Source: Dehalococcoidia bacterium (GTDB lineage Bacteria > Chloroflexota > Dehalococcoidia > Lucifugimonadales > Australimonadaceae). Taken from it: a stretch of 64,000 bases of DNA. The notes beneath the pieces were generated by a model, which did no database searches, was not told where the DNA came from, and worked only from the letters and a program-made list of their open reading frames with translations. Both the position numbers and the translations under genes were made by a program. The stretch is from assembly GCA_965248065.1 (NCBI GenBank), contig OZ252088.1, positions 1,406,368-1,470,367 on the forward strand, written 5' to 3'. Of this stretch, positions 13,160 to 61,895 are shown one piece after another; position 1 is the first letter of the stretch, and each line of letters begins with the position of its first letter.

Positions 13160-13371
13160 AAACGGAGCTGTACTGTCGGACCCGAAACGCGCGCTCAGGA
13201 GTGAAATAGCATGGAAAACCAGGAAAAAGCGACAGTTTCGAGAAAAACCGCGCTCACAGCGAAGGGCCTGCGGCGCTACGGGCGGGTAGGGCGGGCGCGC
13301 CGATTCCTAGGGCCTCCGCCTGCGCGGGAATGTGCGGAAGGGGGTATGCAGGGTTCCGCATACGCCGAAGC

Positions 13372-13516
13372 GTAACTGTTCAGTGTTGATGAGTTTAGGT
13401 TCGTGGTGAGCCTGTCGAACCACGCCGCCCGCCACCCCCCTCCGGTCCCCCTCCTTACCAAGGAGGGGCTAGGGGTGGTTCCGCTGGCATTCGCCTCACC
13501 AAGCCTGAACAGTTAC
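13372..13516. mobile_element. 145-bp MITE derived from the IS66-family element at 19682-21105
   Basis: Terminal inverted repeats GTAACTGTTCAG...CTGAACAGTTAC. Left end GTAACTGTTCAGTGTTGATGAG matches the IS66 right end GTAACTGTTCAGAGTTGATGAG. Flanking 8-mers GCCGAAGC and GCTGAAGC match at 7 of 8 positions. Confidence 0.65.
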
Positions 13517-19527: not shown

Positions 19528-19681
19528 GGGAACCTCGCAGCGGCGCGGTAGCGACGCGATCCCTCCCCCGCCCCCCTCCGCTCCGGTCCCCTCGCCCGTC
19601 TGCTCCGGCCTCCTCTCCCGTCTGCGGGAGAGAGTTAGAGAGAGGGTCTGCGGGAGAGGGCTAGGGAGAGGGTCTGCGACA

Positions 19682-24562: not shown

Positions 24563-24702
24563 GACACGATACATCCGGCTGGAGCCCCTGCTCACGGCAG
24601 GCGTCAGCCCTCTGGATTCCCCCCTGGGGCGAAAGGGCACCCCTACACAGCGAAATCCCCCCCCCCCGCGTCTGGCCCCCCGCCTGCGCGGGAATGACGG
24701 AG

Positions 24703-30858: not shown

Positions 30859-30937
30859 GTCCTGAAGAGACCGGAGGGTCCGGCGGTCGCGAGTATAGCG
30901 GGTTTCCCCGGCGGCCACGGGAGGGACTCCCTCCGTC

Positions 30938-30957
30938 ATTCCCGCGCAGGCGGGAAT
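30938..30957. repeat. solitary copy of the ATTCCC-N8-GGGAAT palindrome
   Basis: CCGTC-ATTCCCGCGCAGGCGGGAAT-CTCGC lies in the divergent intergenic region between the ACAD and MFS genes. Confidence 0.85.
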
Positions 30958-31031
30958 CTCGCACGGGGGAGAGCTGTCTGTGGAGGAGGCCCGGCGGCCA
31001 CGGACGGGACGTGGTATGTTGCGGCCACCCC

Positions 31032-38598: not shown

Positions 38599-39065
38599 CG
38601 CTTTCCTCCTACGCTCCGCCGGAACGTGGCGCTGTAAGCGCGTGCAAGAAACAGACGAATCCCATTGCTGGAATGTCATGCGGCAAGGTACCGGCGCAAA
38701 GCGCACATGTCAATCATCGTTTATCGGCAACCGTAGGGGCGGACCGACTGCGGCGCCCCCTCTCCGTCATTCCCGCGGCAGGCGGGGATCTCGCATTGCT
38801 CCTCCCCCGTCTGGAGACCCTTGCGTAGACCTCGAACTGGCGCGTGGCGAGCCTGTCGAATCATGGACCGGCTTGGGATTCTCGGGAGTGCAGAGGGCTT
38901 TGCCCTCTGCCGGGGGCGTGGGGGTGTCCCCTACACCTTACGGGGCGGGAGGGTGGGAAAGTTACGCAAAGGTCTCCTCTGCGGGGGACGCCGGTAGGAT
39001 AGCCGTCATTGGAGGATCGCGAGCCGGGGCTGGCGAGATGCCGGCCCCGGCTGATACGCATGCAG
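38599..39065. repeat. intergenic repeat mosaic
   Basis: Degenerate palindrome at 38769-38789 and hairpin CCTCCCCCGTCTGGAG. The segment 38850-38935 recurs at 40740-40850 and, inverted, at 55440-55540. Confidence 0.7.
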
Positions 39066-40331: not shown

Positions 40332-41020
40332 CGCTCTCCTCCTACGCTCCGCTGACATCGCTGAAACGTGGCGCTCTAAGCGCGTGCAAGGACACGAATC
40401 CCATTGCTGGAATCTTACGCGGCAAGGTACCGACGCGAGCCGCGCATGTCAATTGTGGCTTATCGGCGGTTGCCGGGCGGACGGAGCTCGGCGGCCCTTC
40501 TCCTTTCGTCATTGCTTCGAAAATAGGCCTCTCGCAGAGGTAGTCAGCCGTACCAATCCGTCATTCCCGCGGAGGCGGAAATCCAGGTGTCAGCGCTCCG
40601 CTCGCCTATTTTCGTCGGTTATGGTGTGGGCCGGCAGGCCCACATGAGGGATTCCCGCGCAGGCGGGAACCTCGCCCCCTCCCGTTCCCCTCCTTACCAA
40701 GGAGGGGCTAGGGGTGGTTCCGTCTGAGAGACCTTTTGCGTAAACCTCAAACTGGTTCGTGGTGGGCCTGTCGGACCATGAACCAGCTTGGAATATTGGG
40801 GAGCGCAGAGGGGCGCTCCCCTCTGCCGGGGGCGTGGGGGTGTCCCTCACAACACAGTGGGTGGGTGGGTGGGAAGAGTTACGCCCGCCAGAAATAGGGT
40901 TACGCAAAGGTCTCGTGTCTGCGGGGGAGAGTTAGAGAGGGGGCTCCCTGCGGAGAGACCAGAAGCCGGGGCCGGCGAGAACGCCGGCCCCGGCTCTACG
41001 AGTCCGGCTGGTCGATGCAG
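40332..41020. repeat. intergenic repeat mosaic
   Basis: Palindromes at 40563-40582 (degenerate) and 40651-40670. Hairpin CCCCTCCTTACCAAGGAGGGGCTAGGGGTGGTTCC at 40687-40721. Confidence 0.75.
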
Positions 41021-42277: not shown

Positions 42278-42709
42278 CGGTTTTTCCTCCTGGGTTTACG
42301 CTGACATTACCTGGGCATGCGATACGTTATACGCATGCAAAGCCCGTTCGGATTCATCTGGTGAAATCTCGCGCGGCAAGGTACCGGCGCAAGGCAGGAG
42401 TGTCAATTGCCCCGCCCCCACTCGTCATTCCCGCTCCCCCTCCGTCATTCCCGCGCAGGCGGGAACCTCGCGCCCAACCCCCTCCCGTCTGCGGGAGGGG
42501 ACGCGCAAGCGCAGCGAAGCGCGGGGGAGGAGAAGCGGCGGCGCGCAGACCTCCCCCCGTCATAACCCGCCGCGCCCCACGTACCTGTAGGGGCGTCCCT
42601 TGTGGGCGCCCCCGCCCAATAGGTTCGCCGTCCCCAACGCTCCCGTCCCCTCCTTGCCAAGGAGGGGCTAGGGGTGGTTCCGTCTGCGCGGGGGAGGACA
42701 CCCACCCCC
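42278..42709. repeat. intergenic repeat mosaic
   Basis: Palindrome at 42447-42466, GC-hairpin module at 42481-42540, CCCCTCCTTGCCAAGGAGGGG module at 42647-42681. Confidence 0.75.
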
Positions 42710-42739: not shown

Positions 42740-42787
42740 AACGTCACACGCCAGCATACACCCGACACACCGAACCCCCGAGCGGAC

Positions 42788-42826
42788 GAGCCGCCGGAGC
42801 CACAGCAAGGCCCGGCGGCTCTTTTC
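42788..42826 (+). terminator. intrinsic terminator-like hairpin with T-tract
   Basis: GAGCCGCCGG-(14-nt loop)-CCGGCGGCTC followed by TTTTCGTT. No coding gene lies upstream on this strand. Confidence 0.5.
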
Positions 42827-42861
42827 GTTCCGCCGGGCGCCGCCCACGGAAGGAGGACCCC

Positions 42862-44394
42862 ATCAAGCTCCCACGCCCCAAGGACACCCCCATCGACCTC
42901 TCACCCTACCGCGACGACCCCCTCGGCTTCGTCAAAGACATCCTCTCCGGATCAGGGACGCCCTACGCCAAGCAGGAAGAGCTGCTCCGCGCCCTCGTCA
43001 GCGAGAAGCGCCGCGTCTCCGTTGTCGGATGCAACTCCTCCGGCAAGGACTGGGCCGCCGCTCGCGCCATACTCTGGTGGATCGAGACACGCCCCAAAGC
43101 CAAGGTCATCGTCACCGGACCCACCCTCCGGCAGGTCAAGGAGATCGTCTGGGAGGAGCTCCGCGCCGCCCACGCCGCCGCCAAACACCGGCTCTCCGGC
43201 GCCGTCCGCGTCGGCGAGTACCGCGCCGGCCCCGACCGCGTCGGCCTCTGCATCACCTCCAACAACCAGCACAACCTCCAGGGCTTCCACTCACCCGAGC
43301 TCCTCGTCATCGTCACCGAGGCCCAGGGCGTCAAGCAGCCCTACTTCGAAGCGCTCAAACGCCTCAACCCCAAGAAGATGCTCCTGTTGGGCAACCCCCT
43401 CAGCCTCACCGGCGAGTTCTACGACTCCCATCACGGCAAGAGCCCCCTGTACGAGCGCGTCTCCATCTCGGCCTACGACTCCCCCAACGTCCAAGAGGGC
43501 CGCCTCGACGCCCTCCCCGGCCTCGTCACGCCCGAGGACATGGAGGAGCGCCGCCAGGAGTGGGGCCCGGACTCCCCCCTCTACATCGCGTCGATCCTCG
43601 GCCAGTTCCCCGAAGCCCTCGAAGACTCCCTCACCTCCCGCCCCCACGTGGACGCCGCCATCGAGCGCTGGCGCCGCGAGTCCCCTTCCGTCATTCCCGC
43701 TCTCTCTTCCGTCATTCCCGCGCAGGCGGGAACCTCGCAGCCCATCCCCCTCCTTACCAAGGAGGGGCTAGGGGTGGTTCCGTCTGCGGGAGGGGACGCG
43801 CGAGCGCAGCGAAGCGCGGGGGAGGCGGCCCCCCTCATCCCGCCCAGCGACGGCCCCCACCTCAACCAGCCCTGGCGCATGGGCGTCGATGTCGCCCGGT
43901 TCGGCAACGACAAGTCTGTCATCTGCCTCCGGCGCGGCGACCGCGTCGAGCGCATCATCGCCTTCGAGCGCAAGGACACCATGCGCCTCGCCGACGAGGT
44001 CCGCGAGCTCGCCGAGACCCTGCGCGTCCCCGCCGTCTTCGTCGACGAGACCGGTGTCGGCGGAGGCGTGGTCGACCGCCTGAAGCAGCTCCGCGTCCCC
44101 GTCATCGGCGTCGAGGGGGGAGGCAGGGCCTACCGCCCCGCCCAGTTCGCCGACATGCGGGCCGAGACGTTCTGGGAGGTGGCCCGCCGCCTCCGCGAGG
44201 GCCAGATGTCCCTCCCGCCCGACGACGACCTTGCGGGCCAGCTCCTCGCCCAGCGCTACGACATCTCGTCGGCGGGGCGCATCCACCTCGAAAGCAAGGC
44301 GACCCTCCGCCGCCAAGGCGTCCCCTCCCCCGACAAAGCCGACGCCCTAGCCCTCGCCTTCATGGAGCCCCCCAACATGAACGTATGGTTCTAA
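42862..44394 (+). CDS. phage terminase large subunit (orphan; no canonical start codon; carries a repeat insertion)
   Basis: The continuous frame runs from the stop at 42739-42741 to 44394. ATPase part has Walker A-like VVGCNSSGKD and Walker B-like LLVIVTEAQG. Nuclease part has MGVDVARFGNDKSV, VFVDETGVGGGV and SPDKADALALAF. No in-frame ATG, GTG or TTG occurs before 43378. GGAAGGAGGA lies 4 nt upstream of an in-frame ATC at 42862. Confidence 0.65.
   Translation: MKLPRPKDTPIDLSPYRDDPLGFVKDILSGSGTPYAKQEELLRALVSEKRRVSVVGCNSSGKDWAAARAILWWIETRPKAKVIVTGPTLRQVKEIVWEELRAAHAAAKHRLSGAVRVGEYRAGPDRVGLCITSNNQHNLQGFHSPELLVIVTEAQGVKQPYFEALKRLNPKKMLLLGNPLSLTGEFYDSHHGKSPLYERVSISAYDSPNVQEGRLDALPGLVTPEDMEERRQEWGPDSPLYIASILGQFPEALEDSLTSRPHVDAAIERWRRESPSVIPALSSVIPAQAGTSQPIPLLTKEGLGVVPSAGGDARAQRSAGEAAPLIPPSDGPHLNQPWRMGVDVARFGNDKSVICLRRGDRVERIIAFERKDTMRLADEVRELAETLRVPAVFVDETGVGGGVVDRLKQLRVPVIGVEGGGRAYRPAQFADMRAETFWEVARRLREGQMSLPPDDDLAGQLLAQRYDISSAGRIHLESKATLRRQGVPSPDKADALALAFMEPPNMNVWF
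43684..43830. repeat. repeat mosaic of about 147 bp inserted in frame inside the terminase gene
   Basis: Contains the half palindrome GTCATTCCCGC, the full palindrome at 43714-43733, the CCCCTCCTTACCAAGGAGGGGCTAGGGGTGGTTCC module at 43747-43781 and the GC-hairpin module at 43783-43830. It is translated as PSVIPALSSVIPAQAGTSQPIPLLTKEGLGVVPSAGGDARAQRSAGEA. Confidence 0.75.
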
Positions 44395-44637
44395 CCATGC
44401 CCCGCCGTTGCTTAACCCTCCGTCATTCCCGCGCCCTCATCCGTCATTCCCGCGCAGGCGGGAACCTCGCAGCGGCGCGACAGCGCCGCGGTCCCTCCCC
44501 CTCTCCCGTCTGCGGGGAAGAGCTAGAGAGGGCACCCCAACGAGACGGTTGCCCGGCGCAAGGTCCGCGCCTATCCTGCCAATCTCCTCTCCCTGCAATG
44601 GAGAAGAGGGCTAACGTGAGACCCAAGGAGGTCCGCA
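44395..44637. repeat. intergenic repeat mosaic
   Basis: Half palindrome at 44421-44432, full palindrome at 44446-44465, hairpin CTCCCGTCTGCGGGGAAGAG. Confidence 0.7.
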
Positions 44638-45660
44638 ATGACGACTACGGCGACGGCGTGCATCGATGCGGACGGCCACGTCCGCGACACGGACGAGGAC
44701 ATCCGGCGCTACTTGCGGGCGCCCTACAACGAGCGGCCCCGCCTGAGCGCGAACTCGCCGCGCGACGGATTCGACAACACCCTCGGCAACCGGCTCGGCA
44801 CGAGAGAAGTCGATACGTCCGTCTGGCTGGACGCGCTGGAGCGCGGGAGGCTCGATTTCGCCGCGCTCTACCCCACGGGGAGCCTCGGCGCGGGGTGGCT
44901 GCGCGAGCCCGGCTTCGCCGATGCGCGGGCGGCCGCCTACAACGATTGGCTGTTCCATACCTACCTGGAAGCGGACCCGCGCTTCAAGGGAGTCGCGATG
45001 CTGCCGGTCCAGGACCCCGCGCTGGCGGCGGCGGAGCTTCGGCGGGCCGTGGCCGAGCTGGGAATGGTCGGGGGGATGCTCCCCGAAGGGCCGTACCTGT
45101 TCGGCAAGCCGGAGTTCGACATCGTCTATGAGGAGGCGCAACGCTTGGGCGTGCCCCTCGCCATCCACGCGAGCGGCCGAATCACGGGGAGCTACGACGA
45201 GTTCCTGTTCGACAACCTGGCGCAGGTCCATTCGCTCGGGCACGCGTTCGTGCAGATGAAGCAGTTCGTGAGCATCGTGCTATCGGGCGTGCCGGAGAAG
45301 TTCCCCGATCTCAAGCTGGCGTTCTTGGAAGCCGGGTGCGGCTGGGTCCCGTACATGCTGGACCGAATGGACGAGCGCTATCACCTCAGAGGCCGGGAGG
45401 ACGCTCCGGTGCTGACCAAGTACCCGAGCGAGTACATGACATCCGGCAACATATTCGTATCCTGTGAGGCGGAGGAGCGTTTGCTGCCCGAGACGCTCCG
45501 CATCATCGGCGAGGACGTGGTGATCTACGCGTCCGACTTCCCGCATTGGGACGCCGAGTTCCCGGCGAACATCCAGCATCTGCTCGCGCGGGAGGACCTC
45601 ACGGAGGGCCAGCGGGCAAAGGTCGCCGGACAGAACGCCAAGCGGCTGTACAACCTCTAA
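44638..45660 (+). CDS. amidohydrolase-2 family protein
   Basis: N-terminal CIDADGHVRD and C-terminal YASDFPHWD. AAGGAGG RBS. Confidence 0.85.
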   Translation: MTTTATACIDADGHVRDTDEDIRRYLRAPYNERPRLSANSPRDGFDNTLGNRLGTREVDTSVWLDALERGRLDFAALYPTGSLGAGWLREPGFADARAAAYNDWLFHTYLEADPRFKGVAMLPVQDPALAAAELRRAVAELGMVGGMLPEGPYLFGKPEFDIVYEEAQRLGVPLAIHASGRITGSYDEFLFDNLAQVHSLGHAFVQMKQFVSIVLSGVPEKFPDLKLAFLEAGCGWVPYMLDRMDERYHLRGREDAPVLTKYPSEYMTSGNIFVSCEAEERLLPETLRIIGEDVVIYASDFPHWDAEFPANIQHLLAREDLTEGQRAKVAGQNAKRLYNL

Positions 45661-45709
45661 TCCCCTTCTCCCGTCTGCGGGGGAGGGCTAGAGGTGGGAG
45701 AGAAGCACG

Positions 45710-47466: not shown

Positions 47467-48342
47467 CTACGGGCGGACGCCGGAGCGCGCCGCTGCGGCT
47501 TCCAGGGCCCGCTTCGCAATCACCCGGGTCAGATGCTCCCGGTACTCCTCGGAGCCGTGGATGTCCGCCAGAAACTCCATGCCGTCGCTGGCCCTGCGCG
47601 ACGCCTTCTCGATGGACTCGGCATCGAGCGGCTTGCCGACCAGCACCCGCTCGCTTGCCTTGGCCCGCACCGGGGCTGGGCCCGCTCCGGTCACCGCAAT
47701 CCTGGCCCGCTCGCAGACGCCCCGCCGGTTGATCGTCACGGACGCCGCGACTCCCACGATGGCGAATCGCGACGCCTTGTTGGCGAACTTCACGTAGGCT
47801 GACCCTGTGCGCGGCGGGGCTTTGGCAAAGCGGACTTCGGTCAATATCTCCGTCGGTCCGAGGGTCGTTTCGTACGCATCGACAAAGAATCGCTCCGCCG
47901 AAATCGTCCTTGGCCTCGACCCGCCGACGATTCGCATTCTGGCGTCGAGGGCGAGGAGCGCAGCCGGGATGTCGGCCGCGGGGTCCGCGTGGGCCGCCGA
48001 GCCGCCGATCGTCCCCCGATTCCGCACTTGGAGATCGCCGACCACCCCCGCCGTCTCGACCAGCAGCGGTGCGGCGCCGGCCAGGATGTGCGACCTCTCG
48101 ATTTCGCAGTAGGTCGTTCCCGCGCCTATCGCGATGCCGTCGTCCAATCGGCGGATGTACGAAAGCTCCCCCAGCCGTCCGATGTCCACGACGTGCTCCG
48201 GCTGAACGAGCCGCAGCTTCATCGCCGGGACGAGACTCATCCCACCGGAGATTACCCGCGCATCGCCCTCGTGTTCGCGCATGAGCCGCACCGCCTGGCG
48301 CAGCGAAGCGGGCGCGTGGTAGGTGAATGCGGCGGGAATCAC
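47467..48342 (-). CDS. molybdopterin-dehydrogenase FAD-binding medium subunit (CoxM/CutM-like)
   Basis: GTG start. [42 protein letters not shown]. Confidence 0.85.
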
Positions 48343-48908
48343 GGACCCCCTCCCTGACCCTCCCCCTGGAAGGTGGAGGGGTTTATGTGGCTCTCCCCCC
48401 GGACGGAGGAGGCGAGGTTCCCGCCTACGCGGGAATGACGGATTGGGCGCATCGTCTCAGCCGCGGCGAGGGCAGAGGCGACGATGTTCTGGTATCCGGT
48501 GCACCGGCACATGTTTCCGCTCAACGCGGCCCGCACCTCCGGGTCGGTGGGGTCGGGGTTGCGCCGTAGGAACTCGTGCAGCGTCATCACCATCCCCGGC
48601 GTACAGAAGCCGCACTGGAGGCCGTGCTGCTCGTGGAACGCCTGCTGAATCGGGTGCAGCCGGTCGCCCTTCGCCAGCCCTTCGATGGTCGTGACCCTTG
48701 CCCCCTCGGCCTGGGCCGCGAACATTGCGCACGACTTCACCGCCGCGCCGTTCAGCAGCACCGTGCACGCTCCGCACTGGCTCGTATCACAGCCGATGTG
48801 CGTGCCGGTCAGCCGCAGTCTCTCGCGAATCAGGTCGACGAGCAGCTCGCGGTCTTCGACCTCAGCGGTGCGCCGTCTGCCGTTGACGGTGAGCGTTACC
48901 TCAATCAT
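48339..48908 (-). CDS. (2Fe-2S)-binding small subunit (CoxS/CutS-like) with a repeat-derived C-terminal tail
   Basis: [11 protein letters not shown] and CGFCTPGM...CRCTGY motifs. The last ~35 aa ([34 protein letters not shown]) are encoded by a repeat module containing the palindrome at 48417-48436. Confidence 0.85.
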
Positions 48909-50168: not shown

Positions 50169-50579
50169 CCTCCCGTAGACGACGCGTGATGCAAATTGAC
50201 GCGGGGGAGTGGGGGTCGATGAGGTCGAATCGACTCCCGTCGGCGCATCGCACGACCGCAATGGCTCGTTTTGATCCAAAGATGTCTCATCCATCTCACT
50301 CGTAACTTTCCCCGGCCTACGAGTGCGCGGGGGCTGTCTTACCGCTTCGGGTGCGCCACTAAGGTCTCATTTGGTCTCATTTGGTCTCATTTTACTCCTG
50401 AGCACGAGCCCGGGCGCCTTCGGCAGCGGGGTCTCGTGCGGAACCACCCCTAGCCCCTCCTTGGTAAGGAGGGGGACGGCGCGTAAACCAGTGTAGGGAG
50501 AGCGGGGGTGTTCGGGGAAGGGGCAAGTGTCAGTCTCCGCCGCGTCAGCAATTTCGCATCACGCGTCGTAGACGGGAGG
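50169..50579. mobile_element. non-autonomous TIR-bounded element (~0.4 kb), copy A
   Basis: Left end CCTCCCGTAGACGACGCGTGATGCAAATTGACGCGG (50169-50204). The complement of the right end is CCTCCCGTCTACGACGCGTGATGCGAAATTGCTGACGCGG (50540-50579). Internal GGTCTCATTT x3 at 50363-50392. No conserved ORF. Confidence 0.6.
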
Positions 50580-50580
50580 G

Positions 50581-50972
50581 GATTTTCGAGGCAATCCCTC
50601 ATGTGGGGCTCGCCTCACACCGCAACCGACGAAAATAGGGTGGCCGATACCTGGATTCCCGCCTGCGCGGGAATGACGGGGGAAGGACCGCGCCGCTGTC
50701 GCGCCGCTGCGAGGTTCCCGCCTGCGCGGGAATGACGGAAGGGGGCGCGGGGTGACGGGGGAAGTCTGCGCGTCGCCTCCCCCGCGCTTCGCTGCGCTTG
50801 CGCGCGTCCCCTCCCGTCTGTGCGGAAGGGGGATTTTCGAGGCAATCCCTCATGTGGGGCTCGCCTCACACCGCAACCGACGAAAATAGGGGGGCCGATA
50901 CCTGGATTCCCGCCTGCGCGGGAATGACGGGGGAGAGGGATCGCTGCGCTGTCGCGCCGCTGCGAGGTTCCC
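50581..50972. repeat. tandem copies of a ~250-bp composite repeat unit (second copy interrupted by IS30)
   Basis: Units start at 50581 and 50831 (GATTTTCGAGGCAATCCCTCATGTGGGGCTCGCCTCACACCGCAACCGACGAAAATAGG...). Palindromes at 50655-50674, 50714-50733 and 50906-50925. Confidence 0.8.
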
Positions 50973-51996
50973 TGAATCCACAAACGAAGTGCAACACCAG
51001 ATTAGGGTGTTGCCATGGAATACAGACAGCTCTGCATTGAGGAACGGTGTGAGATTGCCCGCTTACGCGCCAAGGGCTCCTCGGTCCGGCAAGTCGCTAC
51101 AGCTCTGGATCGCGCGGCATCGACCGTGGCTCGGGAGCTGAAGCGGAACGCGCTGCGAACGGACGGGTACCAAGCGTCGCCGGCCCAGGAGCGTGCCCGC
51201 GCGCGGCGCTGGACGGGGGCGCGGCTGGAACGGGACGAGGGGTTGCGGGAGCGGGTCTTGGCGGGCCTGAAGTGGGGGTGGTCGCCGGAGCAGGTCGCCC
51301 ATGAGATGCGCAGAGAGGAGGGCCGGACGGTGACCTCGGACGAGAGCATCTACCGGTTCGTCTACGCCCAGGCCGCGCGGCACAAGGACCATGATTGGCG
51401 GCGCTACTTGCCGAGGGCGAAGTGGAAGCGGGGAAGGCGGGGCCGCAGGGGGGGAAGCTCGGTTTCCTTCATCCCCCTCCGGAGGGCGCTCTCGGAGCGG
51501 CCGGCGGTGGCGGCCGACCGGCGGACCTTCGGGCACTGGGAGGCGGACACGATGCAGTTCGGGAGGTCGGGAGAGGTGGTGTTGGCCCTGCAGGAACGCT
51601 CCTCGCGCCTCTTGCTTCTCGCGCGTGCGCCGTCGAAGGAGGCGGGGCCGATCGCGGAGTCCATCGCCCGGATGCTGGGGCCGTTGCCGCCGGAGTTTCG
51701 CCAGACGGTGACCTTCGACAATGGGACCGAGTTCACCCGTCACTACGAGCTCCACCGGTTGGGCATCGAGACGTTCTTCTGCGACACGTACTCGCCGTGG
51801 CAGAAGGGGGGAGTGGAGAACGCGATCGGCCGGCTGCGGCGGTTCCTGCCGCGGGGGACGAATCTGGGGGAGGTGTCGGATGAGCGGTTTGCGCTGATCG
51901 GGCAGGCGTACAACAATACGCCGCGCAAGTGCCTGGGCTACCGGACACCGGCGGGGGTCGTCGAGGAGCAGGTGTTGCACTTCAAATGTGGATTCA
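50973..51996 (+). mobile_element. intact IS30-family insertion sequence
   Basis: IRL TGAATCCACAAACGAAGTGCAACACC at 50973-50998. The IRR complement TGAATCCACATTTGAAGTGCAACACC at 51971-51996 matches at 23 of 26 positions. Single transposase ORF. Confidence 0.85.
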
Positions 51997-52019
51997 CCTT
52001 CCCGCCTGCGCGGGAATGA
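51015..52019 (+). CDS. IS30-family DDE transposase
   Basis: N-terminal HTH (RAKGSSVRQVATALDRAASTVAREL), HWEADT, TFDNGTEF, YSPWQKGGVEN catalytic blocks. The ORF reads through IRR, and its TGA (52017-52019) lies in the flanking palindrome GGGAATGA. Confidence 0.85.
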   Translation: MEYRQLCIEERCEIARLRAKGSSVRQVATALDRAASTVARELKRNALRTDGYQASPAQERARARRWTGARLERDEGLRERVLAGLKWGWSPEQVAHEMRREEGRTVTSDESIYRFVYAQAARHKDHDWRRYLPRAKWKRGRRGRRGGSSVSFIPLRRALSERPAVAADRRTFGHWEADTMQFGRSGEVVLALQERSSRLLLLARAPSKEAGPIAESIARMLGPLPPEFRQTVTFDNGTEFTRHYELHRLGIETFFCDTYSPWQKGGVENAIGRLRRFLPRGTNLGEVSDERFALIGQAYNNTPRKCLGYRTPAGVVEEQVLHFKCGFTFPPARE

Positions 52020-52217
52020 CGGAGGGGAGGCGCGGGAATGACGGGGGAAGTCTGCGCGCCGCCGCCTCTCCTCCCCCGCGCTTCGCTGCGCTTGCGCGTC
52101 CCCTCCCGCAGACGGGAGTGGGATTGGGACCGCTGCGCTGCCGCGCCGCTGCGAGGTTCCCGCCTGCGCGGGAATGACGGAAGGAGTCGGAAACGACGGG
52201 GAAGGGCTGCGAGGTTC
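51997..52217. repeat. continuation of the interrupted repeat unit plus further mosaic
   Basis: Palindromes at 51998-52017 and 52156-52175. GC-hairpin module at 52047-52117, colinear with 50761-50822. Confidence 0.8.
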
Positions 52218-53057
52218 CTACGTTGCGCCGAGGCCTCCGTGCTGCTGCTGGCCTAGGCGGTTGTAGGTGACGGGCGTCGTAACGAGGAGGCCGGCGTCCA
52301 CGGGCAGGACGACTCCTGTGATCCAGCGGGCCTCGTCGCTCGCCAGGAAGACCGCCGCCCACGCCACATCCCATGCCGTGCCCTCGGTGCGGAGAGGGGC
52401 CGCGTTCTTGCGCACCTGGCGCAGGTCGTCGTCCATGCGGGGGGCGACCATCGGGGTGTAGACCAAGCCCGGCGCGATGCAGTTCACCCGGACGCCGTCC
52501 GGCCCGTGGTCGCCGGCCATCGACTGGGTAAGGCCGACCACGGCCGCCTTGGACGTGGTGTAGGGGGTGCTGCTATTGGCGCGCAGGCCCGCTATCGACG
52601 CGATGGTGATGATTGAGCCGCCGCCGACCTTGACCATTTCCGGTATGGCGTACTTGGACGCGAGGACGATGCTCTTGACGTTGACGGCCATGATGTGGTC
52701 CCACTGCGCTTCCGTGACCTCGATCACGTCGGCGCGAGTCGAGATGCCCACGTTGTTGTGGAGGATGTCGACTCGCCCGTAGCGTTCGACCGCGGCGCTC
52801 ACCATCGCCTCGCAGTCAGCCGCGTTCGTAACGTCGGCGGCGACGGCGGAGGCTGTCCCGCCCTCGGCTTGGATCTGGGCGAGCGTCTCTTGGGCGCGCT
52901 CCAGCTCCATGTCCGCGAGCAGGACGCTCGCGCCCTCGCGGGCAAACAGGATGGACGCCGCCTTGCCGTTCCCAACTCCGGGGCCGCTCGATCCGGCGCC
53001 CGTTACGATCGCCACTTTGCCTTCGAGCCTTCCCGCCACGCTATCCTCCCCCTTCAT
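52218..53057 (-). CDS. SDR-family oxidoreductase
   Basis: VTGAGSSGPGVG, NNVG, catalytic YTTSKAAV. Confidence 0.85.
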   Translation of the reverse strand: MKGEDSVAGRLEGKVAIVTGAGSSGPGVGNGKAASILFAREGASVLLADMELERAQETLAQIQAEGGTASAVAADVTNAADCEAMVSAAVERYGRVDILHNNVGISTRADVIEVTEAQWDHIMAVNVKSIVLASKYAIPEMVKVGGGSIITIASIAGLRANSSTPYTTSKAAVVGLTQSMAGDHGPDGVRVNCIAPGLVYTPMVAPRMDDDLRQVRKNAAPLRTEGTAWDVAWAAVFLASDEARWITGVVLPVDAGLLVTTPVTYNRLGQQQHGGLGAT

Positions 53058-53374
53058 AGTCTTGTTCGGTCATGCCGCTGACCGTGGAATGACCCGCCAG
53101 CAGGTCCGACATCTCCGCCACCGGCCCCTCGAATATCTTCCCTTCAATGGACGATTCGACGTTCGCGCGCCAGCCGTCCTCGAGCTTGAGGAGCCTGATG
53201 GTGAGGTGACCGTCGTGGACGACGATTTCGTCTGCTGATTCGGGCCAACGCATGGCCGCCATCATGCGCCACTGGAGGCTTCGGCGCAAGAAATAGGGGG
53301 AAGGGGGCGCCCGCTATGTGTACCTCATATGTTGGCATTACATGTTGATTATGTATGTGGTAGAGTGATGCAGT

Positions 53375-53599
53375 ATGAAGGCAATACAAATATCTATTGA
53401 CGAGAATCTGCTGGAGCGCTTGGACAGCTACCCCGAGGCCGGCCGCCGGGGACGGTCAGCGGTGATCCGGGAAGCAGTAGCCGCCTACCTCGCCCGGAAG
53501 GAGTCGGAGGCGATTGACCGCGCCTACCAGGAAGCTTACGGCCCCAATCCGCCGGAGTTCGACAGCGACTGGGAAAAGGAGGCGGTGTGGCTGGAATGA
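53375..53599 (+). CDS. ribbon-helix-helix antitoxin (MazE/CopG-like)
   Basis: MKAIQISIDENLLERLD...GRSAVIREAVAAYL is an RHH pattern. Overlaps the toxin gene. The AT-rich upstream region contains TGGTAGAGT. Confidence 0.75.
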   Translation: MKAIQISIDENLLERLDSYPEAGRRGRSAVIREAVAAYLARKESEAIDRAYQEAYGPNPPEFDSDWEKEAVWLE

Positions 53600-53919
53600 T
53601 TGGCCTGCAGCGAGGCGAATTATGGCTCCACCAGTTCGCCTCGCCTGACAAGCGCCGCCCTGTCGTGGTGCTGTCGCGTCCCCAGGCCTTGCGGTTTCTG
53701 CGCACCGTTGTCGTCGCTCAGGTAACGTCCACAATCCACGGTTCACCGTCCGAAGTGATTATCGGCGTCGAGGAGGGGCTCAAGGCTTCCTCCGCGATTA
53801 ACCTTGACAATGTGCATACTGTCGACCGGCACAGTCTGCGGCGCTACGTCGGCGCTCTGAGCGAGGAGAAGATGCGGCAAGTCTGCCGCGCTCTCGCCAT
53901 AGCCACCGGCTGCGCTTAA
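53587..53919 (+). CDS. mazF: MazF/PemK-family endoribonuclease toxin
   Basis: RGELWLHQFASPDKRRPVVVLS...VVVAQVTS...INLDNVHTVD is the typical MazF/PemK block order. Confidence 0.8.
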   Translation: MAGMIGLQRGELWLHQFASPDKRRPVVVLSRPQALRFLRTVVVAQVTSTIHGSPSEVIIGVEEGLKASSAINLDNVHTVDRHSLRRYVGALSEEKMRQVCRALAIATGCA

Positions 53920-53992
53920 CTCATCCTCCAACCTCTTCCCTTGCGCAGAGAGGTTGGAGGCGGCGCGGGCAAAGGCATAGCGGACGTCCCGG

Positions 53993-55258: not shown

Positions 55259-55715
55259 CTGCGCACCTCCGATTCGAGGCTATTGGGTCTTTTCCGGCCC
55301 ATCATACTCCTACGCGGCAAGAGGCGGGCGCTGCGAGGCTCCCCGCCTTCGCGGGGAATATCTCACGTTGGCCTCCCCGCAGACGAGACCTTTGCATGGC
55401 CCTATTATCCGGCGGGCGTAACTCTTCCCACCCACCCGCCCATCATGTTGTGGAGGACACCCCCACGCCCCCGGCAGAGGGGCGTCGCCCCTCTTCGCTC
55501 CCCAGTATTCCAAAGCCGGTCCATGGTCCGACAGGCTCACCGCGAACCTACGGGATGCCTGGATTCCCGCCTGCGCGGGAATGACGGGGCGGGGCTGACG
55601 GCGGGCGGGGCGTTCTCCTCCCCCGCGCTCGCTGCGCTTGCGCGTCCCCTCCCGCAGACGGGAGGGGGTTAGGCGCGAGGTTCCCGCCTGCGCGGGAATG
55701 ACGGAGGGGGCTAGC
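55259..55715. repeat. intergenic repeat mosaic
   Basis: Palindromes at 55563-55582 and 55680-55699, a degenerate one near 55338-55360. GC-hairpin module at 55611-55668. Confidence 0.75.
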
Positions 55716-56954
55716 CTACGCGCCGTAGTCGGGGGCCATCGGGACTTGGTGGGTGAGTTGGGTGTCTTTGCCCGTGCGCGAGGACTCCATGATTCCGGTG
55801 ATGAGCTCCAGGGTGGCCATGCCCCACCGGCCATCGTGGTAGACCGGAGCGTCGTTGCGGATGGCGTTGTACAGCTCCATCAGGTCCTCGCGGCCCGCCT
55901 GGTAGCGCGAGATGCTCAGCGCCCGGTCCTCGATGCCGCCGTCCTTGTAGACGTACAGCCCGTAGCGGGACTGGCGCAGGTCGCCCCGCTCGCACGTCGC
56001 CACGAGTATGCCGAGGTTGGCGGGGCGCCAGGGGGGCGCCTCCTTGGGCGCTTCGCGCCAGAACCGCCGCTCGTGGTCCGAGCCGATGCGCAGCGAGTCC
56101 TTTGCCTCGAATTCGTCCCGCGTCCCGGCCTTGAGCTCGGCGCGTATGCGGACGCGGTCGTCGTGGGTGTAGCCCTCGATCAGGCCCCGTCCTTGCTCGT
56201 CGCTCCACGGGGTGAGGTCGGCGGTCATGGAGTAGCCGTAGCCGTTGTTCGTCACGTTCGCCGTGACGCCGTTTTCGAACTCCATGAGCGCGGAGTAGTA
56301 GCCGACGGCGTGGCGCTCAGGCCACCACTTGCCCGTCGTACCGCGGATGGTCTTGACCATCCCGCCGCCGAGGAGGCGCAGGCTGTCGAGCTGATGCGGC
56401 CCCTGGCGGTAGAGCACGCCGCCGCCGACGCTCTCATCGAGCTCCTCCGGCTGACGGGCTTGGAGCATCCAGTCCGTGAACGCCCAGTTGTTGAGCGCCA
56501 TGAGCGGGCCGAGCTCGCCGGACTGGATGATGCGGCGCATCTCCATGACCGGCGGGCTGAACCCGAGGGTGTGTCCACAGAGGAGCTTGACGTTGTTCTT
56601 GGCCGCCGCGTCGACCATCGCTTCGGCCTCGGCCATGCTGAGGGCCATCGGCTTCTCGGACACGACGTGCTTTCCCGCATTCGCCGCCAGGACGGTATGG
56701 GGGCTATGCCAGTTATTGGGGGTCGCGACCCAGACCGCCTCGACGTCAGGGTCGGCGCAGAGCCCTTCGGCGCTGTCGTAGACGCGGGCACCGGGGAAGC
56801 GGGCCTGGAACGCCTCACGGACGCGCGGGTTGGTGTCCGCCGCCGCCATGAGGTCGATCTTGTCCAAGCTCTCCATGTTCGGCATGATCTGCGTCGCGCC
56901 GACGCCGACCCCGATGACGCCCATCTTCAGCGGCTTGGCTTCAGCCATCGTCAC
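55716..56954 (-). CDS. Gfo/Idh/MocA-family oxidoreductase
   Basis: Rossmann N-terminus LKMGVIGVGVGA and the EKP motif VVSEKPMA. Confidence 0.85.
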   Translation of the reverse strand: MTMAEAKPLKMGVIGVGVGATQIMPNMESLDKIDLMAAADTNPRVREAFQARFPGARVYDSAEGLCADPDVEAVWVATPNNWHSPHTVLAANAGKHVVSEKPMALSMAEAEAMVDAAAKNNVKLLCGHTLGFSPPVMEMRRIIQSGELGPLMALNNWAFTDWMLQARQPEELDESVGGGVLYRQGPHQLDSLRLLGGGMVKTIRGTTGKWWPERHAVGYYSALMEFENGVTANVTNNGYGYSMTADLTPWSDEQGRGLIEGYTHDDRVRIRAELKAGTRDEFEAKDSLRIGSDHERRFWREAPKEAPPWRPANLGILVATCERGDLRQSRYGLYVYKDGGIEDRALSISRYQAGREDLMELYNAIRNDAPVYHDGRWGMATLELITGIMESSRTGKDTQLTHQVPMAPDYGA

Positions 56955-57367
56955 CCTCCCCGGTTGGTTCGGAGACCAACGCCCTCGATGTTTGCCGCCA
57001 CAGCGAGGTTCTTGTCCAACGTGGCGAGCACAGCCCCGCGACGGATTGCGGTTTCCAAGTAGGCGGCGTCGTACACGGTAAGGCGATGGCGGCGAGCTAG
57101 TTCGAGGGTCTCTGTTTCGACGTGGTCGGCATAGACCTCAATATCCAGTTCGCCGAGACGCTCCAAGAAGCGCATCGTTCCTTCACTGTTGATGCGCCCT
57201 CTCCGCTCGGAGTTGACCAGCACATTACGAATTTCGTACCAGAAGACCCCCGTGGTTATGCCGGGTTCGCTGATGAGACGCTCAGCGATAGCGCTCGCCT
57301 CGGCCGCTCCTTCTTCATCGGGAAAACACCACGCAATTGCCACGGAAGCGTCCAAGACGATAGCCAT
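56951..57367 (-). CDS. vapC: PIN-domain toxin (VapC family)
   Basis: MAIVLDASVAIAW...YEIRN...TVYDAAYLETA...LATLD. The stop overlaps the oxidoreductase start by 4 nt. Confidence 0.85.
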   Translation of the reverse strand: MAIVLDASVAIAWCFPDEEGAAEASAIAERLISEPGITTGVFWYEIRNVLVNSERRGRINSEGTMRFLERLGELDIEVYADHVETETLELARRHRLTVYDAAYLETAIRRGAVLATLDKNLAVAANIEGVGLRTNRGG

Positions 57368-57522
57368 CAGCGTCGACCCTCGTCTCGCATCTTCCGAATC
57401 TCCTCCCTCGACATCCGCTGCCGCTTGTCACGTTCTGCAAGCATCAGGGTTATCACCTGCCTGCGCCGCGTCTGCTCGTGCGCGGGGATGCCTTTGGGGG
57501 CCGCATTCCTTTTCGTAGCCAT
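57367..57522 (-). CDS. putative cognate antitoxin (short, basic)
   Basis: Start trimmed to MATKRNAAPKG at 57522. 1-nt overlap with the PIN gene. Family not recognised. Confidence 0.45.
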   Translation of the reverse strand: MATKRNAAPKGIPAHEQTRRRQVITLMLAERDKRQRMSREEIRKMRDEGRR

Positions 57523-57538
57523 GGCGTAATTGTACCGC

Positions 57539-58594
57539 TTACGCGATAACGCCCACGACTTTCTGCGAAACGACCTCCTCCTCACGATACAGCCCCATCG
57601 CTTCGACGATGGGCAGGTCGCTCATCGAGAACAGCACCGCGTCGTCGGACGAGTCGGTCCCGTGCTCGTGGGGCAGCCACGACGGCAGGACGAAGGTGTC
57701 GCCCTTCGACCATTCGAGGCGCTTGCCGTCGATGACCGAGTAGCCTTCGCCCTTGGCGGCGTGATAGACGACGCTCGACGTGTGCCGGTGGGCGGCGGTG
57801 CGGGACCCCGGCGCGAGCCGCTGGAGCTTGAGCGCCAGCGTCGGCATGCTGTGGCCGCCGGTGACGGGGTTCGAGTACTCCATGATGACGCCGTCGAAGG
57901 GGTCTTCCTCGCCGTAGCCGAGCAGGGCGCCGTAGGCCTCGTTCCACTTGTACGTGATGGGGAGCGTCCCGCCGACCACGTCCTTCGGGTTCGCGCGCAT
58001 CAGCCCGTTGCCGATGGCCGCGTTCGTGTAGCCGATGGGCTTGGTGATGGGCTGCACGTCCTCGGGGAAGGGCTCCTGGAACATGGCGTCGAAGTAGCCG
58101 ACCATCGGGGCGTCGAGACAGTCGAGCCAGATAACCGGCTTGTCCTCGGGGTTGTTGTGGTCGTGCCATGCCCAGCTTGGGGTGAGAACGAGGTCGCCCT
58201 CCTCCATCCGGAAGCGCTCGCCGTCCTGCACCGTGAAGGCGCCTTCGCCCTGGATGACGAACCGGATGGCGGCTGCCGTATGACGGTGCGCTTCCGCGAT
58301 TTCGCCCGGCCAGACGATCTGGACCGCCGCCGACATGGTCTTGGTCGCGCCGGCCTGGGGATTCTTGAGGCCGGGGTTGCGCATGGTGAGCGCGCGGCGG
58401 AAGCCCTGGCCCCTCAGGCTGGGCAGGTCGCCGGCGTGCATCGCCAGCTCGCGCATCTTCTCCCATCGCCAGACGTGGGGGGCGAGCTTGGGTCGCTCGG
58501 GCGGGTTGGCGTGCATCACCCAGAGGGGGTTGATGTTCTCGTCGTCGAGCTCTTGGTGGAACGCTCGTTCGCTCTCAGGCATCGTCCAGGCCAT
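57539..58594 (-). CDS. gentisate 1,2-dioxygenase (bicupin)
   Basis: Two cupin modules, AHRHTAAAIRFVIQGEG and AHRHTSSVVYHAAKGEG. N-terminal INPLW context. Confidence 0.8.
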   Translation of the reverse strand: MAWTMPESERAFHQELDDENINPLWVMHANPPERPKLAPHVWRWEKMRELAMHAGDLPSLRGQGFRRALTMRNPGLKNPQAGATKTMSAAVQIVWPGEIAEAHRHTAAAIRFVIQGEGAFTVQDGERFRMEEGDLVLTPSWAWHDHNNPEDKPVIWLDCLDAPMVGYFDAMFQEPFPEDVQPITKPIGYTNAAIGNGLMRANPKDVVGGTLPITYKWNEAYGALLGYGEEDPFDGVIMEYSNPVTGGHSMPTLALKLQRLAPGSRTAAHRHTSSVVYHAAKGEGYSVIDGKRLEWSKGDTFVLPSWLPHEHGTDSSDDAVLFSMSDLPIVEAMGLYREEEVVSQKVVGVIA

Positions 58595-59313: not shown

Positions 59314-59359
59314 CGCTGCTTCCGCATTATTGCCTACCACTCCGCCAAGGGCATTCTGG

Positions 59360-59379
59360 GTTCCCGCCTGCGCGGGAAT
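59360..59379. repeat. solitary palindrome copy between FAH and hypothetical genes
   Basis: GTTCCCGCCTGCGCGGGAAT followed by GACG. Confidence 0.8.
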
Positions 59380-59391
59380 GACGATATAGGG

Positions 59392-60246: not shown

Positions 60247-60352
60247 CAATCTCTCCTCTACCTCTTGTCGATGCGGCGACGGTACCACCGGCCTGGGAGG
60301 CGGTCAACGGCCCCTCCCTCTCCCTAGCCTCTCCCGCAGACGGGCGAGGGAA

Positions 60353-60725
60353 CCTCCCCCGTAGAAGACGCATGATGCGAAATGACACGGTGGGGGCAGC
60401 GGGGGCGGCGCCCGGTGAGCCGGAAATGGCTCCCGTCCGGCGCATCGCACGACCGCAAGGGCTTGGTTTTGTCCGAAGATGCCTCGTCCATCTCACTCGT
60501 AACTTTCCCCGGCCTCCGAGTGGGCGGGGCTGCTCGACCGAGGCGAAGGGTCATTTTGGTCTCATTTGGTCTCATTAAGTCTCATTTACTCCTGAGCACG
60601 AGCCCGGCGCCGTAGGCAGCGGGACCCCTGTGGGACCACCCCTAGCCCCTCCTTACCAAGGAGGGGGACAGCGCGTAAACCAGTGTAGGGAGAGCGGGGA
60701 TGTTTGGGGAAGGGGCAAATGTCAG
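60353..60725. mobile_element. copy B of the ~0.4-kb non-autonomous element (right terminus missing)
   Basis: Colinear with 50169-50535 at roughly 80-85% identity by eye. Left end is CCTCCCCCGTAGAAGACGCATGATGCGAAATGACACGG. The 10-bp repeats lie at 60548-60587. Similarity ends after GGGGCAAATGTCAG. Confidence 0.6.
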
Positions 60726-61097
60726 GGACGGGGGTTCGGAGAGGGCGAGGGGTTGGTTGGCCGGCAGACGCGCAGACCCTCTTTCTAGCTCTCTCCCGTA
60801 GACGGGAGAGAGGACCGGAGGAGACGGGGGAGAGGGGCGAGGTTCCCGCCTTCGCGGGAATGACGGATAGGGGGCGCGGGAATGACGGATAGGGGGTTTG
60901 GAGGGGGGCGAGGGCTATGACGAGGGGAAGTCTGCGCGGACGAGGGGAAGTCTGCGCGCCGCCGCCTCTCCTCCCCCGCGCTTCGCTGCGCTTGCGCGTC
61001 CCCTCCCGCAGACGGGAGGGGGGTTCCTGGGTTCCCGCTTTCGCGGGAATGACGGAGAGAGGCGGAGCGCCTATTTTCGAGGGAATGGCGGGAGGGG
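60726..61097. repeat. intergenic repeat mosaic
   Basis: Intact hairpin CTCCCGTAGACGGGAG at about 60793-60808. Palindromes at 60842-60861 and 61031-61050. GC-hairpin module at 60955-61028. Confidence 0.75.
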
Positions 61098-61712: not shown

Positions 61713-61895
61713 GCCTGCCTCCTCTGCTTCGGTCCTCTACTCGCACGGAGTCTAACCGTTCCATTATTCACGCGCAGGCGGGAACCTGGTCTCCTCTGCT
61801 GGGGCGGATTTCAGACCCGCCTGCTGTCCCAACGTGGGATTACGCAAGGGTTCCGCAGACGGAGAGGAGGCTTCGGAGCAGACGGGGGAAGGGGG

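Follow-up and report, generated by a model that had tools for sequence, protein, structure and literature searches.

A dRS3/NTS-type hairpin repeat arranged in one-strand mosaics in a Dehalococcoidia genome

The DNA considered here is a 64,000-nucleotide stretch (positions 1,406,368 to 1,470,367 of contig OZ252088.1, from a Dehalococcoidia bacterium), referred to below as the window, in which a palindrome with the core ATTCCC-N8-GGGAAT recurs among several other repeated modules. Within it, the intergenic interval 50581-52217 separates two dehydrogenase genes of the minus strand and contains five palindromes, two 76-nt tail modules, two copies of a module designated C, and a 1,024-bp insertion sequence (IS) of the IS30 family. 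As judged from its sequence, the palindrome forms the center of a repeat that is already known, variously described as dRS3/NTS, as the CGTC-1 repetitive extragenic palindrome (REP), and as the Ssn-related motif. The window thus presents a known repeat/nuclease system in a new host, with a variant organization, and not a new kind of element; before the initial annotation of this DNA, members of the family had already been listed from several phyla (Di Nocera 2013) and a connection made with the nuclease Ssn (Chenal 2025). The likeness to dRS3 that the annotation pointed out is correct and is stronger than was claimed, because the whole asymmetric unit, and not only the palindrome, fits the 28-nt NTS, in three cases exactly.

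The NTS of Neisseria, which contains dRS3, is the 28-nt sequence CGTCATTCCCGCGMAVGCGGGAATCYRG (Chenal 2025, PMC11893778). This consensus is matched at 17 places in the window with three or fewer mismatches, each on one strand, against an expectation of 0; three matches are exact, three have one mismatch, and seven have two, six of these seven belonging to the a-type defined below. The local unit is a strand-asymmetric hairpin of 28 nt, CGTC-ATTCCCGC-GMAV-GCGGGAAY-CYRG, with 17 strand-specific matches in the window and none expected by chance. Its parts are, in order, an unpaired CGTC tag, the 8-bp stem ATTCCCGC, a 4-nt loop G(A/C)A(A/C/G), the returning arm GCGGGAA(T/C), and a tail C(Y)(R/C)G; a C-rich flank precedes the tag in the sense orientation of the repeat. 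When both strands are scanned for RTTCCCGC-N4-GCGGGAAY with up to two mismatches, 18 window sites are found (0.06 expected from shuffles), 16 of them within 40.5-61.8 kb, and the exact form ATTCCC-N8-GGGAAT occurs at four sites (0 expected). All 17 copies that the initial annotation had classed as good are among the 18, and the remaining site, 40563, is one of five that it had classed as degenerate (13313, 24676, 38769, 40563, and 55338), each of which can be seen in the sequence. Beside the full matches and degenerate copies there are also five half-sites, CGTCATTCCCGC, which lie 20-22 nt upstream of five full copies, a half-plus-full layout that is present in other taxa as well.

The anatomy of the unit was examined in 228 palindromes selected by the stem alone from the window and 65 related loci. 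CGTC is present on exactly one side in 205 of the 228 and on both sides in none. Among the 205 tagged copies, the base directly 3' of the stem, a position not used in the selection, is C in 202, and G stands at the fourth position past the stem in 201. Two tails are found, CTCG and CCAG, so that the constant flanks that had been noted on either side of the palindrome are confirmed. The loops conform to GMAV, with GCAG (120 copies) followed by GAAA (48), GAAG (15), and GAAC (9). Two subtypes can be distinguished: the commoner a-type ends in GGGAAC-CTCGCAGCGGCGCG and runs on into a second small hairpin, and the b-type ends in GGGAA(T/C)-CCAG, the tail trinucleotides being CTC and CCA, respectively. 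As single-stranded DNA (ssDNA), the core folds into a hairpin of 7-8 bp with a free energy of −8.4 to −11 kcal/mol (z −2.2 to −3.4 versus shuffles). The stem also covaries, since 413 sequences picked only by CGTCATTCC include the paired arms CCGGC/GCCGG (97), CCCGC/GCGGG (90), CCTGC/GCAGG (11), CCAGC/GCTGG (7), and CCCGT/ACGGG (9).

The distribution of the repeat identifies the host lineage. In a collection of species-representative genomes, a 32-mer characteristic of the a-type is confined to four Dehalococcoidia metagenome-assembled genomes (MAGs), where it occupies 65 blocks of 8 kb spread over both contigs of CBDHDB01 (2.89 and 1.34 Mb) and many contigs of CBDFLP01. The window is syntenic with CBDHDB010000002.1 at 90-94% identity (52-62 kb of the window matching locus L151, and 36-44.5 kb matching L131), and its host is therefore a close relative of the CBDHDB01 organism. 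At least 178 copies with up to two mismatches are present in 42 blocks of CBDHDB01, a sample that covers about 8% of the assembly and is biased to one subtype, and gene-proximal copies occupy orthologous positions in that genome and the window. The lineage thus holds hundreds of copies in which the determinants of nuclease recognition are intact.

The annotation had allowed that the motif might be confined to one contig, as in an assembly chimera, or might be no more frequent than in shuffled sequence. Mapping beyond the window gave the opposite on both counts. A chimera is excluded because the repeat is found in four MAGs, in a syntenic relative, and as orthologous copies. The broader proposal that the palindrome is a product of chance or convergence in a GC-rich genome, or an assembly artifact, draws on nothing but the high G+C content of the host; it is countered by the 17-18 observed sites where shuffles give 0-0.06, by the exact 24-mer core at 119 or more loci across many phyla where about 0.1 would be expected in 596 Gb by our own arithmetic, by linkage to homologous ssn genes in many phyla, and by the orthologous sites in an independent MAG. 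It was rejected, and we regard it as extremely improbable. A CRISPR array was also rejected as a description of the locus: the apparent spacers are themselves repeated modules, the spacing is irregular, and no cas genes were found in the scanned window open reading frames (ORFs).

The protein that reads this repeat has been characterized in Neisseria. SsnA is a 94-residue, single-domain GIY-YIG protein (cd10448) that binds NTS and cleaves DNA a few nucleotides to its 5' side, acting on the tagged strand only and only when it is ssDNA; the RNA form is not bound (Chenal 2025, PMC11893778). Binding depends critically on the C that follows the palindrome, and cleavage on the three bases that precede it (Chenal 2025, PMC11893778). 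These positions (GTC 5' of the stem and C 3' of it) are nearly invariant in the present lineage and are its most conserved unpaired positions. It has also been reported that an ssn gene typically lies between copies of the repeat, that 81% of genomes with more than 200 motifs carry ssn, and that in N. meningitidis the Ssn/NTS pair lowers transformation by NTS-containing DNA, whereas the main text makes no mention of Chloroflexota or of tandem arrays (PMC11893778). The initial annotation considered the function of the repeat to be wholly open, a position that no longer holds because binding and cleavage by SsnA have been demonstrated in Neisseria.

The linkage between repeat and nuclease was recovered from the present data. 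Three of the 119 cross-phylum loci contain small GIY-YIG ORFs, and in one of these (L071/L185, Hyphomicrobiaceae) the ORF forms a clean NTS-ssn-NTS unit that has the exact core found in the window. With a profile of these proteins, the repeat lies within 300 bp of the gene in 61 of the best 80 Ssn loci and on both sides in 40; for metagenomic Ssn loci, it is present in 54 of 80. A profile centered on Chloroflexota identified Ssn in at least 35 Chloroflexota/Dehalococcoidia MAGs, including SAR202, with a hairpin within 300 bp at 30 of 35 loci and on both sides at 15 of 35. The proteins, of about 95 residues, are single-domain GIY-YIG proteins by Pfam. Five of the Chloroflexota loci (L287, L290, L309, L319, and L339) have the exact stem of the window, and stem position 6 covaries across the Chloroflexota loci as C-G, G-C, T-A, and A-T. 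It can also be seen that ssn genes in other Chloroflexota (L245/L265, 2870-3000; L267-L344) are flanked by self-complementary stem variants, ATTCCGGC, ATTCCTGC, and ATTCCAGC, which suggests co-evolving nuclease/site pairs within one class.

Ssn proteins from Dehalococcoidia and Betaproteobacteria are up to 84% identical, and ssn genes have a mean GC content of 52%, about 11 points below the 63% of their flanks. These features are consistent with horizontal spread of the Ssn/NTS pair between phyla. The annotation had put forward two alternatives, of which the horizontally spread repeat system is favored; the other, convergence on a site for a shared class of recombinase or transposase, is not, the shared protein being the GIY-YIG nuclease Ssn.

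Within the window the repeat is combined with other modules, and the comparison with Neisseria intergenic mosaic elements (NIMEs) that was drawn from the sequence is apt, in that the palindrome brackets repeat modules. Six copies of module B were reported and six were found, five with up to three mismatches and one more diverged. The number of module C copies likewise stands at six, five together with one carrying a 1-nt deletion, but the coordinates first assigned to them were displaced by about 15-20 nt because the preceding hairpin had been included. The short hairpin D (CTCCCGTCTGCGGGAG) is real, with 10 window copies against 0.19 expected. The features are collected in Table I. Modules B, C, D, and F are restricted to this Dehalococcoidia lineage, whereas NTS is universal. 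A further family, module G (13405, 38850, 40760, and 55520), is a repeat of about 100-200 nt with GTGAGCCTGTCGAACCA that, unlike B, C, and D, is not restricted to the lineage, being present in other Dehalococcoidia loci and in one Nitrospirales locus.

Table I. Copies of the repeat and of associated modules in the window (positions counted from the first nucleotide of the window)
Feature	Position	Strand
Degenerate/partial NTS, 3' arm decayed	13312..13333	-
NTS, 3 mismatches, 3' arm decayed; 4 bp past 3' end of gene 24703-26052(-)	24672..24699	-
NTS, 1 mismatch to 28-nt consensus	30934..30961	+
Degenerate NTS; 1-nt loop insertion, GGGGAT arm	38765..38789	+
NTS, 2 mismatches; CCAG tail, then E-like tail module	40559..40586	+
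Palindrome without CGTC tag (AGGG there), CTCG tail	40651..40670	+
Half-site CGTCATTCCCGC, 20 nt upstream of next full NTS	42423..42434	+
NTS a-type (GGGAAC-CTCG)	42443..42470	+
Half-site, 21 nt upstream of full NTS	43689..43700	+
NTS a-type, within in-frame mosaic insert of terminase-like ORF	43710..43737	+
Half-site, 21 nt upstream of full NTS	44421..44432	+
NTS a-type, 48 bp past stop of terminase-like ORF	44442..44469	+
NTS a-type, loop GTAG; in 3' extension of [2Fe-2S] subunit ORF 48339-48908(-)	48413..48440	-
NTS b-type, CCAG tail, exact 28-nt consensus	50651..50678	-
NTS a-type	50710..50737	-
NTS, exact consensus	50902..50929	-
Tail and distal arm (reverse complement: GGGAACCTCGCAGCG) of IS-split a-type NTS	50958..50972	-
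IS30-family IS inside that NTS; inverted repeats TGAATCCACA...GAAGTGCAACAC	50973..51996	+
CGTC and hairpin remainder of IS-split NTS	51999..52021	-
Half-site, 22 nt upstream (NTS sense) of full NTS	52032..52043	-
NTS a-type, 39 bp past 3' end of short-chain dehydrogenase/reductase (SDR) gene 52218-53057(-)	52152..52179	-
Degenerate untagged copy (GCTCCCCGCCTTCGCGGGGAAT)	55333..55358	-
NTS, exact consensus; distal copy of 117-bp direct pair absent at orthologous L151 site	55559..55586	-
NTS a-type, 13 bp past 3' end of gene 55716-56954(-); orthologous copy in L151	55676..55703	-
NTS, 1 mismatch, 9 bp past 3' end of gene 59392-60288(-)	59356..59383	-
NTS a-type, loop GAAG	60838..60865	-
Half-site, 22 nt upstream of full NTS	60876..60887	-
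NTS, 1 mismatch, loop GAAA, 44 bp past 3' end of gene 61098-61712(-); orthologous copy in L151	61027..61054	-
Degenerate NTS (CATT-ATTCACGC...)	61762..61785	+
Module B (hairpin CCCCTCCTT-ACC-AAGGAGGGG and CTAGGGGTGGTTCC)	13448..13482	+
Module B	40687..40721	+
Module B	42647..42681	+
Module B, in terminase-like ORF insert	43747..43781	+
Module B	50440..50474	-
Module B, diverged, 4 mismatches	60632..60666	-
Module C (GC-rich hairpin block)	42496..42530	+
Module C	43792..43825	+
Module C	50776..50810	-
Module C	52070..52104	-
Module C, 1-nt deletion	55617..55649	-
Module C	60970..61004	-
Hairpin D (CTCCCG-TCTG-CGGGAG)	19615..19630	+
Hairpin D	42482..42497	+
Hairpin D, 2 mismatches	43777..43792	+
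Hairpin D	44503..44518	+
Hairpin D	45668..45683	+
Hairpin D	52103..52118	-
Hairpin D	55649..55664	-
Hairpin D	60331..60346	-
Hairpin D	60793..60808	-
Hairpin D	61003..61018	-
Module E, 76-nt extended tail of b-type NTS at 50651	50579..50654	-
Module E, second copy; tail of NTS at 50902	50830..50905	-

The mosaics are organized in one direction. Neighboring copies in the lineage form 172 head-to-tail and 7 inverted pairs, as against 14 and 79 in the cross-phylum sample, with spacings preferentially of about 95-150 bp or, where a b-type copy follows an a-type copy, of 17-20 bp, and locus L165 contains three tandem 183-bp units, each consisting of an a-type copy, a b-type copy, hairpin D, module C, and a half-site. 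Comparison with orthologous loci indicates how they change. Gene-proximal NTS copies are kept at orthologous intergenic sites while the added cassettes differ: relative to L151, the window has an additional 117-bp cassette of module C and NTS at 55.56-55.68 kb and about 700 bp of additional mosaic at 60.3-61.0 kb. Upstream of a terminase-like gene, the NTS subtype is swapped from GCAG/CTCG to GAAA/CCAG between modules that are otherwise conserved, and the insert inside that gene is itself exchanged wholesale at fixed junctions. The mosaics turn over faster than the adjacent genes.

The terminase-like gene deserves separate description. It is a solitary gene for a protein resembling a terminase large subunit (ORF 42853-44394, plus strand, in a unit spanning 42700-44504), which matches PHROG phrog_2 (E = 1.5e-39) and has no Pfam match. 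A promoter-like site, TTGACG-18-CATAAT, is present at 42710; the ORF has no canonical start before 43378, a possible ATC start following GGAAGGAGG, and an in-frame mosaic of about 60 residues (half-site, NTS, and modules B and C) separates its ATPase and nuclease halves. Multiple copies of this 1.8-kb unit exist: members of the family are present in 15 of 66 sequences (the lineage loci with the window), always embedded in NTS mosaics but with different flanks. The family falls into two subfamilies (about 90% identity within and 75% between), and a protein collection contains at least 1,758 homologues, those that are named being from Chloroflexi.

The explanation that we consider probable is that the element is dRS3/NTS with its recognition determinants intact and that an Ssn nuclease encoded elsewhere in the genome drives the formation of the mosaics. 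In such a mechanism, an Ssn homologue would recognize the repeats, hairpins in transiently single-stranded DNA would be broken at the repeat sites, and the breaks would be repaired from other copies, leading to gain, loss, and swapping of modules and inter-repeat segments; NIME-like mosaics on one strand would be built by that repair, and the repeats may serve secondarily as insertion targets, for example of the IS30-family element. A more far-reaching version, in which the DNA between two same-strand NTS copies is copied as a cassette to other NTS sites after Ssn-type cuts and repair, would have a cargo range from 100-bp hairpin modules to the 1.8-kb unit of promoter and terminase-like gene. 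Compatible with it are arrays that run strictly head-to-tail, 183-bp units in tandem, swaps of subtype at fixed junctions, and terminase-like units that are always embedded in NTS mosaics, but we consider it quite unlikely. If it were true, Ssn/NTS would be, beyond a modulator of transformation, a mobilization mechanism with a GIY-YIG "transposase," which would answer the question raised by Di Nocera of what moves the CGTC repeats.

Several points weigh against the explanation just preferred. Comparison of 80 Ssn proteins by tblastn with the window and with 520 kb of the closest lineage genomes gave neither an ssn gene nor a remnant of one, and no match in the lineage came from phmmer and jackhmmer searches with a GIY-YIG probe (matches verified by Pfam), from two scans of the genome collection, or from one metagenome scan filtered for lineage modules, each scan covering 600 candidates; a cognate nuclease in this genome is for this reason inferred. 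The four lineage MAGs are absent from the best 80 Ssn loci listed, and no lineage modules are present in the 80 metagenomic Ssn loci listed. The proteins of about 95 residues are putative homologues of N. meningitidis SsnA itself. The commonest local subtype, GGGAAC-CTCG, has a stem of 7 bp and two departures from the consensus, and its cleavage by Ssn is a prediction; the head-to-tail layout differs from the repeats that flank ssn and from other taxa, in which inverted pairs predominate. The 117-bp insertion has the structure expected of a fragment cut 5' of one NTS and pasted 5' of another, but it does not discriminate because homologous exchange within the 24-nt core explains it equally well. 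Finally, GIY-YIG nucleases cut and do not ligate, and a putative role in building mosaics would for this reason depend on host repair.

Several of these points would fit a genome in which the Ssn/NTS pair was once present and the nuclease has been lost, with subsequent shuffling of the orphan repeats by homologous recombination, slippage, and unequal crossing-over only. In its favor, ssn was not found in the 584 kb sampled, an SsnA homologue is reported to be lacking from 19% of the genomes that contain over 200 motifs (Chenal 2025, PMC11893778), the tandem 183-bp units and within-repeat junctions require only recombination, and the dominant a-type departs from the consensus. However, the CGTC tag and the following C are near-invariant in more than 200 copies, a constancy that would not be expected to last long without a protein that reads them, and the sample of CBDHDB01 is small and favors one subtype. 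We therefore consider nuclease loss unlikely, and the involvement of an Ssn encoded elsewhere remains the preferred explanation.

The positions of the copies relative to genes bear on a different proposal. The initial annotation had suggested that placement and orientation be mapped; with a simple caller based on GC at third codon positions, 228 of 257 copies (89%) lie outside called genes, and copies between co-directional genes are sense to those genes in 71 cases and antisense in 23, numbers that are approximate since gene calling was heuristic and neighboring copies are not independent. In the window, seven copies lie 4-50 bp past a stop codon, all seven in the sense orientation. These data, together with the argument of Di Nocera et al. 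for such a role of REPs generally (PMC3733652), are what would be expected if the hairpins were primarily RNA elements, 3'-end stabilizers or terminators selected gene by gene. Such elements would account poorly for other observations: C-rich sequence and not a T tract lies 3' of the hairpins, a terminator scan of one stretch (42250-44700) gave no call at its hairpins, and Rfam at gathering thresholds gave no match in the whole window. Furthermore, a terminator needs a stem and not an identical 24-28 nt in ten phyla or an invariant CGTC and following C, about a quarter of the copies are antisense, many lie in arrays far from gene ends, and SsnA does not bind the RNA form (PMC11893778). Intrinsic terminators were thus rejected, and a primary RNA function is quite unlikely, although a 3'-end role at the RNA level could be a side effect. 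A bias with respect to the replication strand was rejected as well, since orientations in contig_2 of CBDHDB01 are locally clustered but mixed overall and the GC skew of the window shows no switch at the place where the repeats change orientation; with this reading dropped, a transcription-related bias is preferred on the basis of the ratio of sense to antisense copies.

The mobile elements in the window raise the question of whether the repeat is a target or attachment site of a recombinase, IS, or prophage (PivNM/Irg-type), or is mobilized by a RAYT transposase. The IS30-family element, with a transposase ORF at 51015-52019 (HTH_38 and rve domains), lies inside an a-type NTS, with a target duplication that is ambiguous (TTCCC or CC). 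A second copy, truncated to a 254-bp left end (19272-19527), abuts the equivalent position of another NTS tail. From the literature, dRS3 is a phage integration target in Neisseria and REPs are IS targets. On the other hand, a site of this kind would account for a handful of insertions and not for hundreds of copies, and one or two events are all that support a specificity of the IS30-family element for the repeat because, beyond the truncated copy in the window, no further IS30-family copies were found in related MAG loci. By Pfam, the approximately 60 window ORFs include no Y1/RAYT transposase, and their recombinases are limited to IS30- and IS66-family transposases. Nor is any recombinase or transposase family enriched beside the repeat: all-against-all ORF clustering of the 119 diverse loci gave housekeeping families only, and in the 66 lineage loci the terminase-like gene is the sole enriched non-metabolic family. 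The shared recombinase or transposase envisaged in the annotation did not, therefore, emerge. The tag, moreover, is CGTC and not GTAG, no CGTC-flanked RAYT was found by Di Nocera (PMC3733652), and the copies are head-to-tail and not inverted doublets of the REPIN type. A target-site origin is accordingly very improbable.

Other features of the window should be noted. An IS66-family transposase (19690-21083, minus strand, two overlapping ORFs with a frameshift) adjoins the truncated IS30 fragment, and a sequence about 91% identical to it is present in L174. Two insertions are absent from L151. One (53260-53990) contains a ribbon-helix-helix antitoxin and MazF/PemK toxin pair (53375-53919, plus strand), and the other (56940-57560), of about 620 bp with minus-strand ORFs of 138 and 73 residues, is suspected to be another toxin-antitoxin pair. 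Unusual for a bacterial genome is the ORF at 61896-62285 (minus strand), a match (E = 3.6e-15) to the archaeal PaREP1/PaREP8 family. Three tandem paralogues of about 420-450 residues (37345-42277, minus strand) have no clear Pfam domain apart from one weak TctC match; they contain internal Gly/Val-rich 77-nt repeats and are separated by antisense NTS mosaics. A repeat of about 370 bp (50170-50560 and 60355-60730), in which a module B hairpin accompanies three tandem units of 10 bp (GGTCTCATTT), lies upstream of two different minus-strand catabolic genes, at distances of about 130 and 70 bp (reaching out to 520 and 440 bp). The tandem motif GGTCTCATTT has seven further copies in related loci, and the repeat may represent a mobile promoter module or else a regulatory region that is shared.

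These observations extend NTS-Ssn to Dehalococcoidia, free-living and high-GC organisms outside the taxa of the original description. They also lend independent support, from about 240 loci, to the published linkage of repeat and ssn, and provide evidence for movement of the pair between phyla. The lineage has a distinct organization, with head-to-tail arrays on one strand that turn over faster than the adjacent genes. Its arrays are a test bed for a question left open in the 2025 paper: does cleavage by Ssn do no more than restrict incoming ssDNA, or are repeats also built and spread by it? The multicopy terminase-like cassettes add to the value of the lineage as a test case. For annotation of Chloroflexota MAGs, spurious ORFs (SFPRRRE, VIPAQAG, RLRGNDG, and AFAGMT peptides) and in-frame inserts derived from the repeats should be expected.

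The closest known systems differ from the present one in separate respects. REP/BIME and REPIN-RAYT systems have in common with it short extragenic hairpins with an unpaired 5' tetranucleotide, mosaic clusters, and recognition of ssDNA by a small dedicated nuclease with a repeat-bracketed gene, but their tag is GTAG in place of CGTC and their nuclease fold is HUH/Y1 in place of GIY-YIG, and neither RAYT (among the window ORFs) nor inverted doublets are present here. Rickettsia RPE-6 and the CGTC repeats of Wolbachia belong to the same CGTC super-family and, like the repeat in the terminase-like ORF, sometimes form in-frame protein inserts, whereas the hosts and stem variants differ, as judged from their descriptions. 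The NIMEs of Neisseria share ATTCCC-N8-GGGAAT and mosaics of palindrome-bracketed modules; however, the filler modules here (B, C, D, E, and F) are lineage-specific and are not Neisseria RS modules, and most local copies miss the strict dRS3 by one base because they end in GGGAAC.

Prokaryotic REPs have been sorted into GTAG- and CGTC-tagged super-families (Di Nocera 2013, PMC3733652). In CGTC-1, which is dRS3 in Neisseria, an 8-bp stem beginning with AT is combined with a 4-nt loop and a short tail (PMC3733652); it was reported in five phyla, Chloroflexi not among them, as mostly head-to-head dimers with negligible head-to-tail pairs, and it "apparently lacks a dedicated transposase" (Di Nocera 2013, PMC3733652). 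The present repeat has the same tag, stem, loop, and short tail (CCA in the b-type) and is likewise found mainly downstream of genes with occasional intragenic copies, but it is arranged head-to-tail and not as head-to-head dimers. With NTS/Ssn (Chenal 2025), it shares the 28-nt sequence, the asymmetry, the hairpin, the loop set, the invariant C, and extragenic clustering, and the same hairpin type flanks ssn in other Dehalococcoidia. The differences are that ssn is not seen in 520 kb of this lineage, that the dominant subtype is GGGAAC-CTCG, that the copies form head-to-tail arrays where those of NTS/Ssn form pairs bracketing a gene, and that the host is a free-living member of the Chloroflexota, whereas the taxa highlighted in that study are enriched in symbionts.

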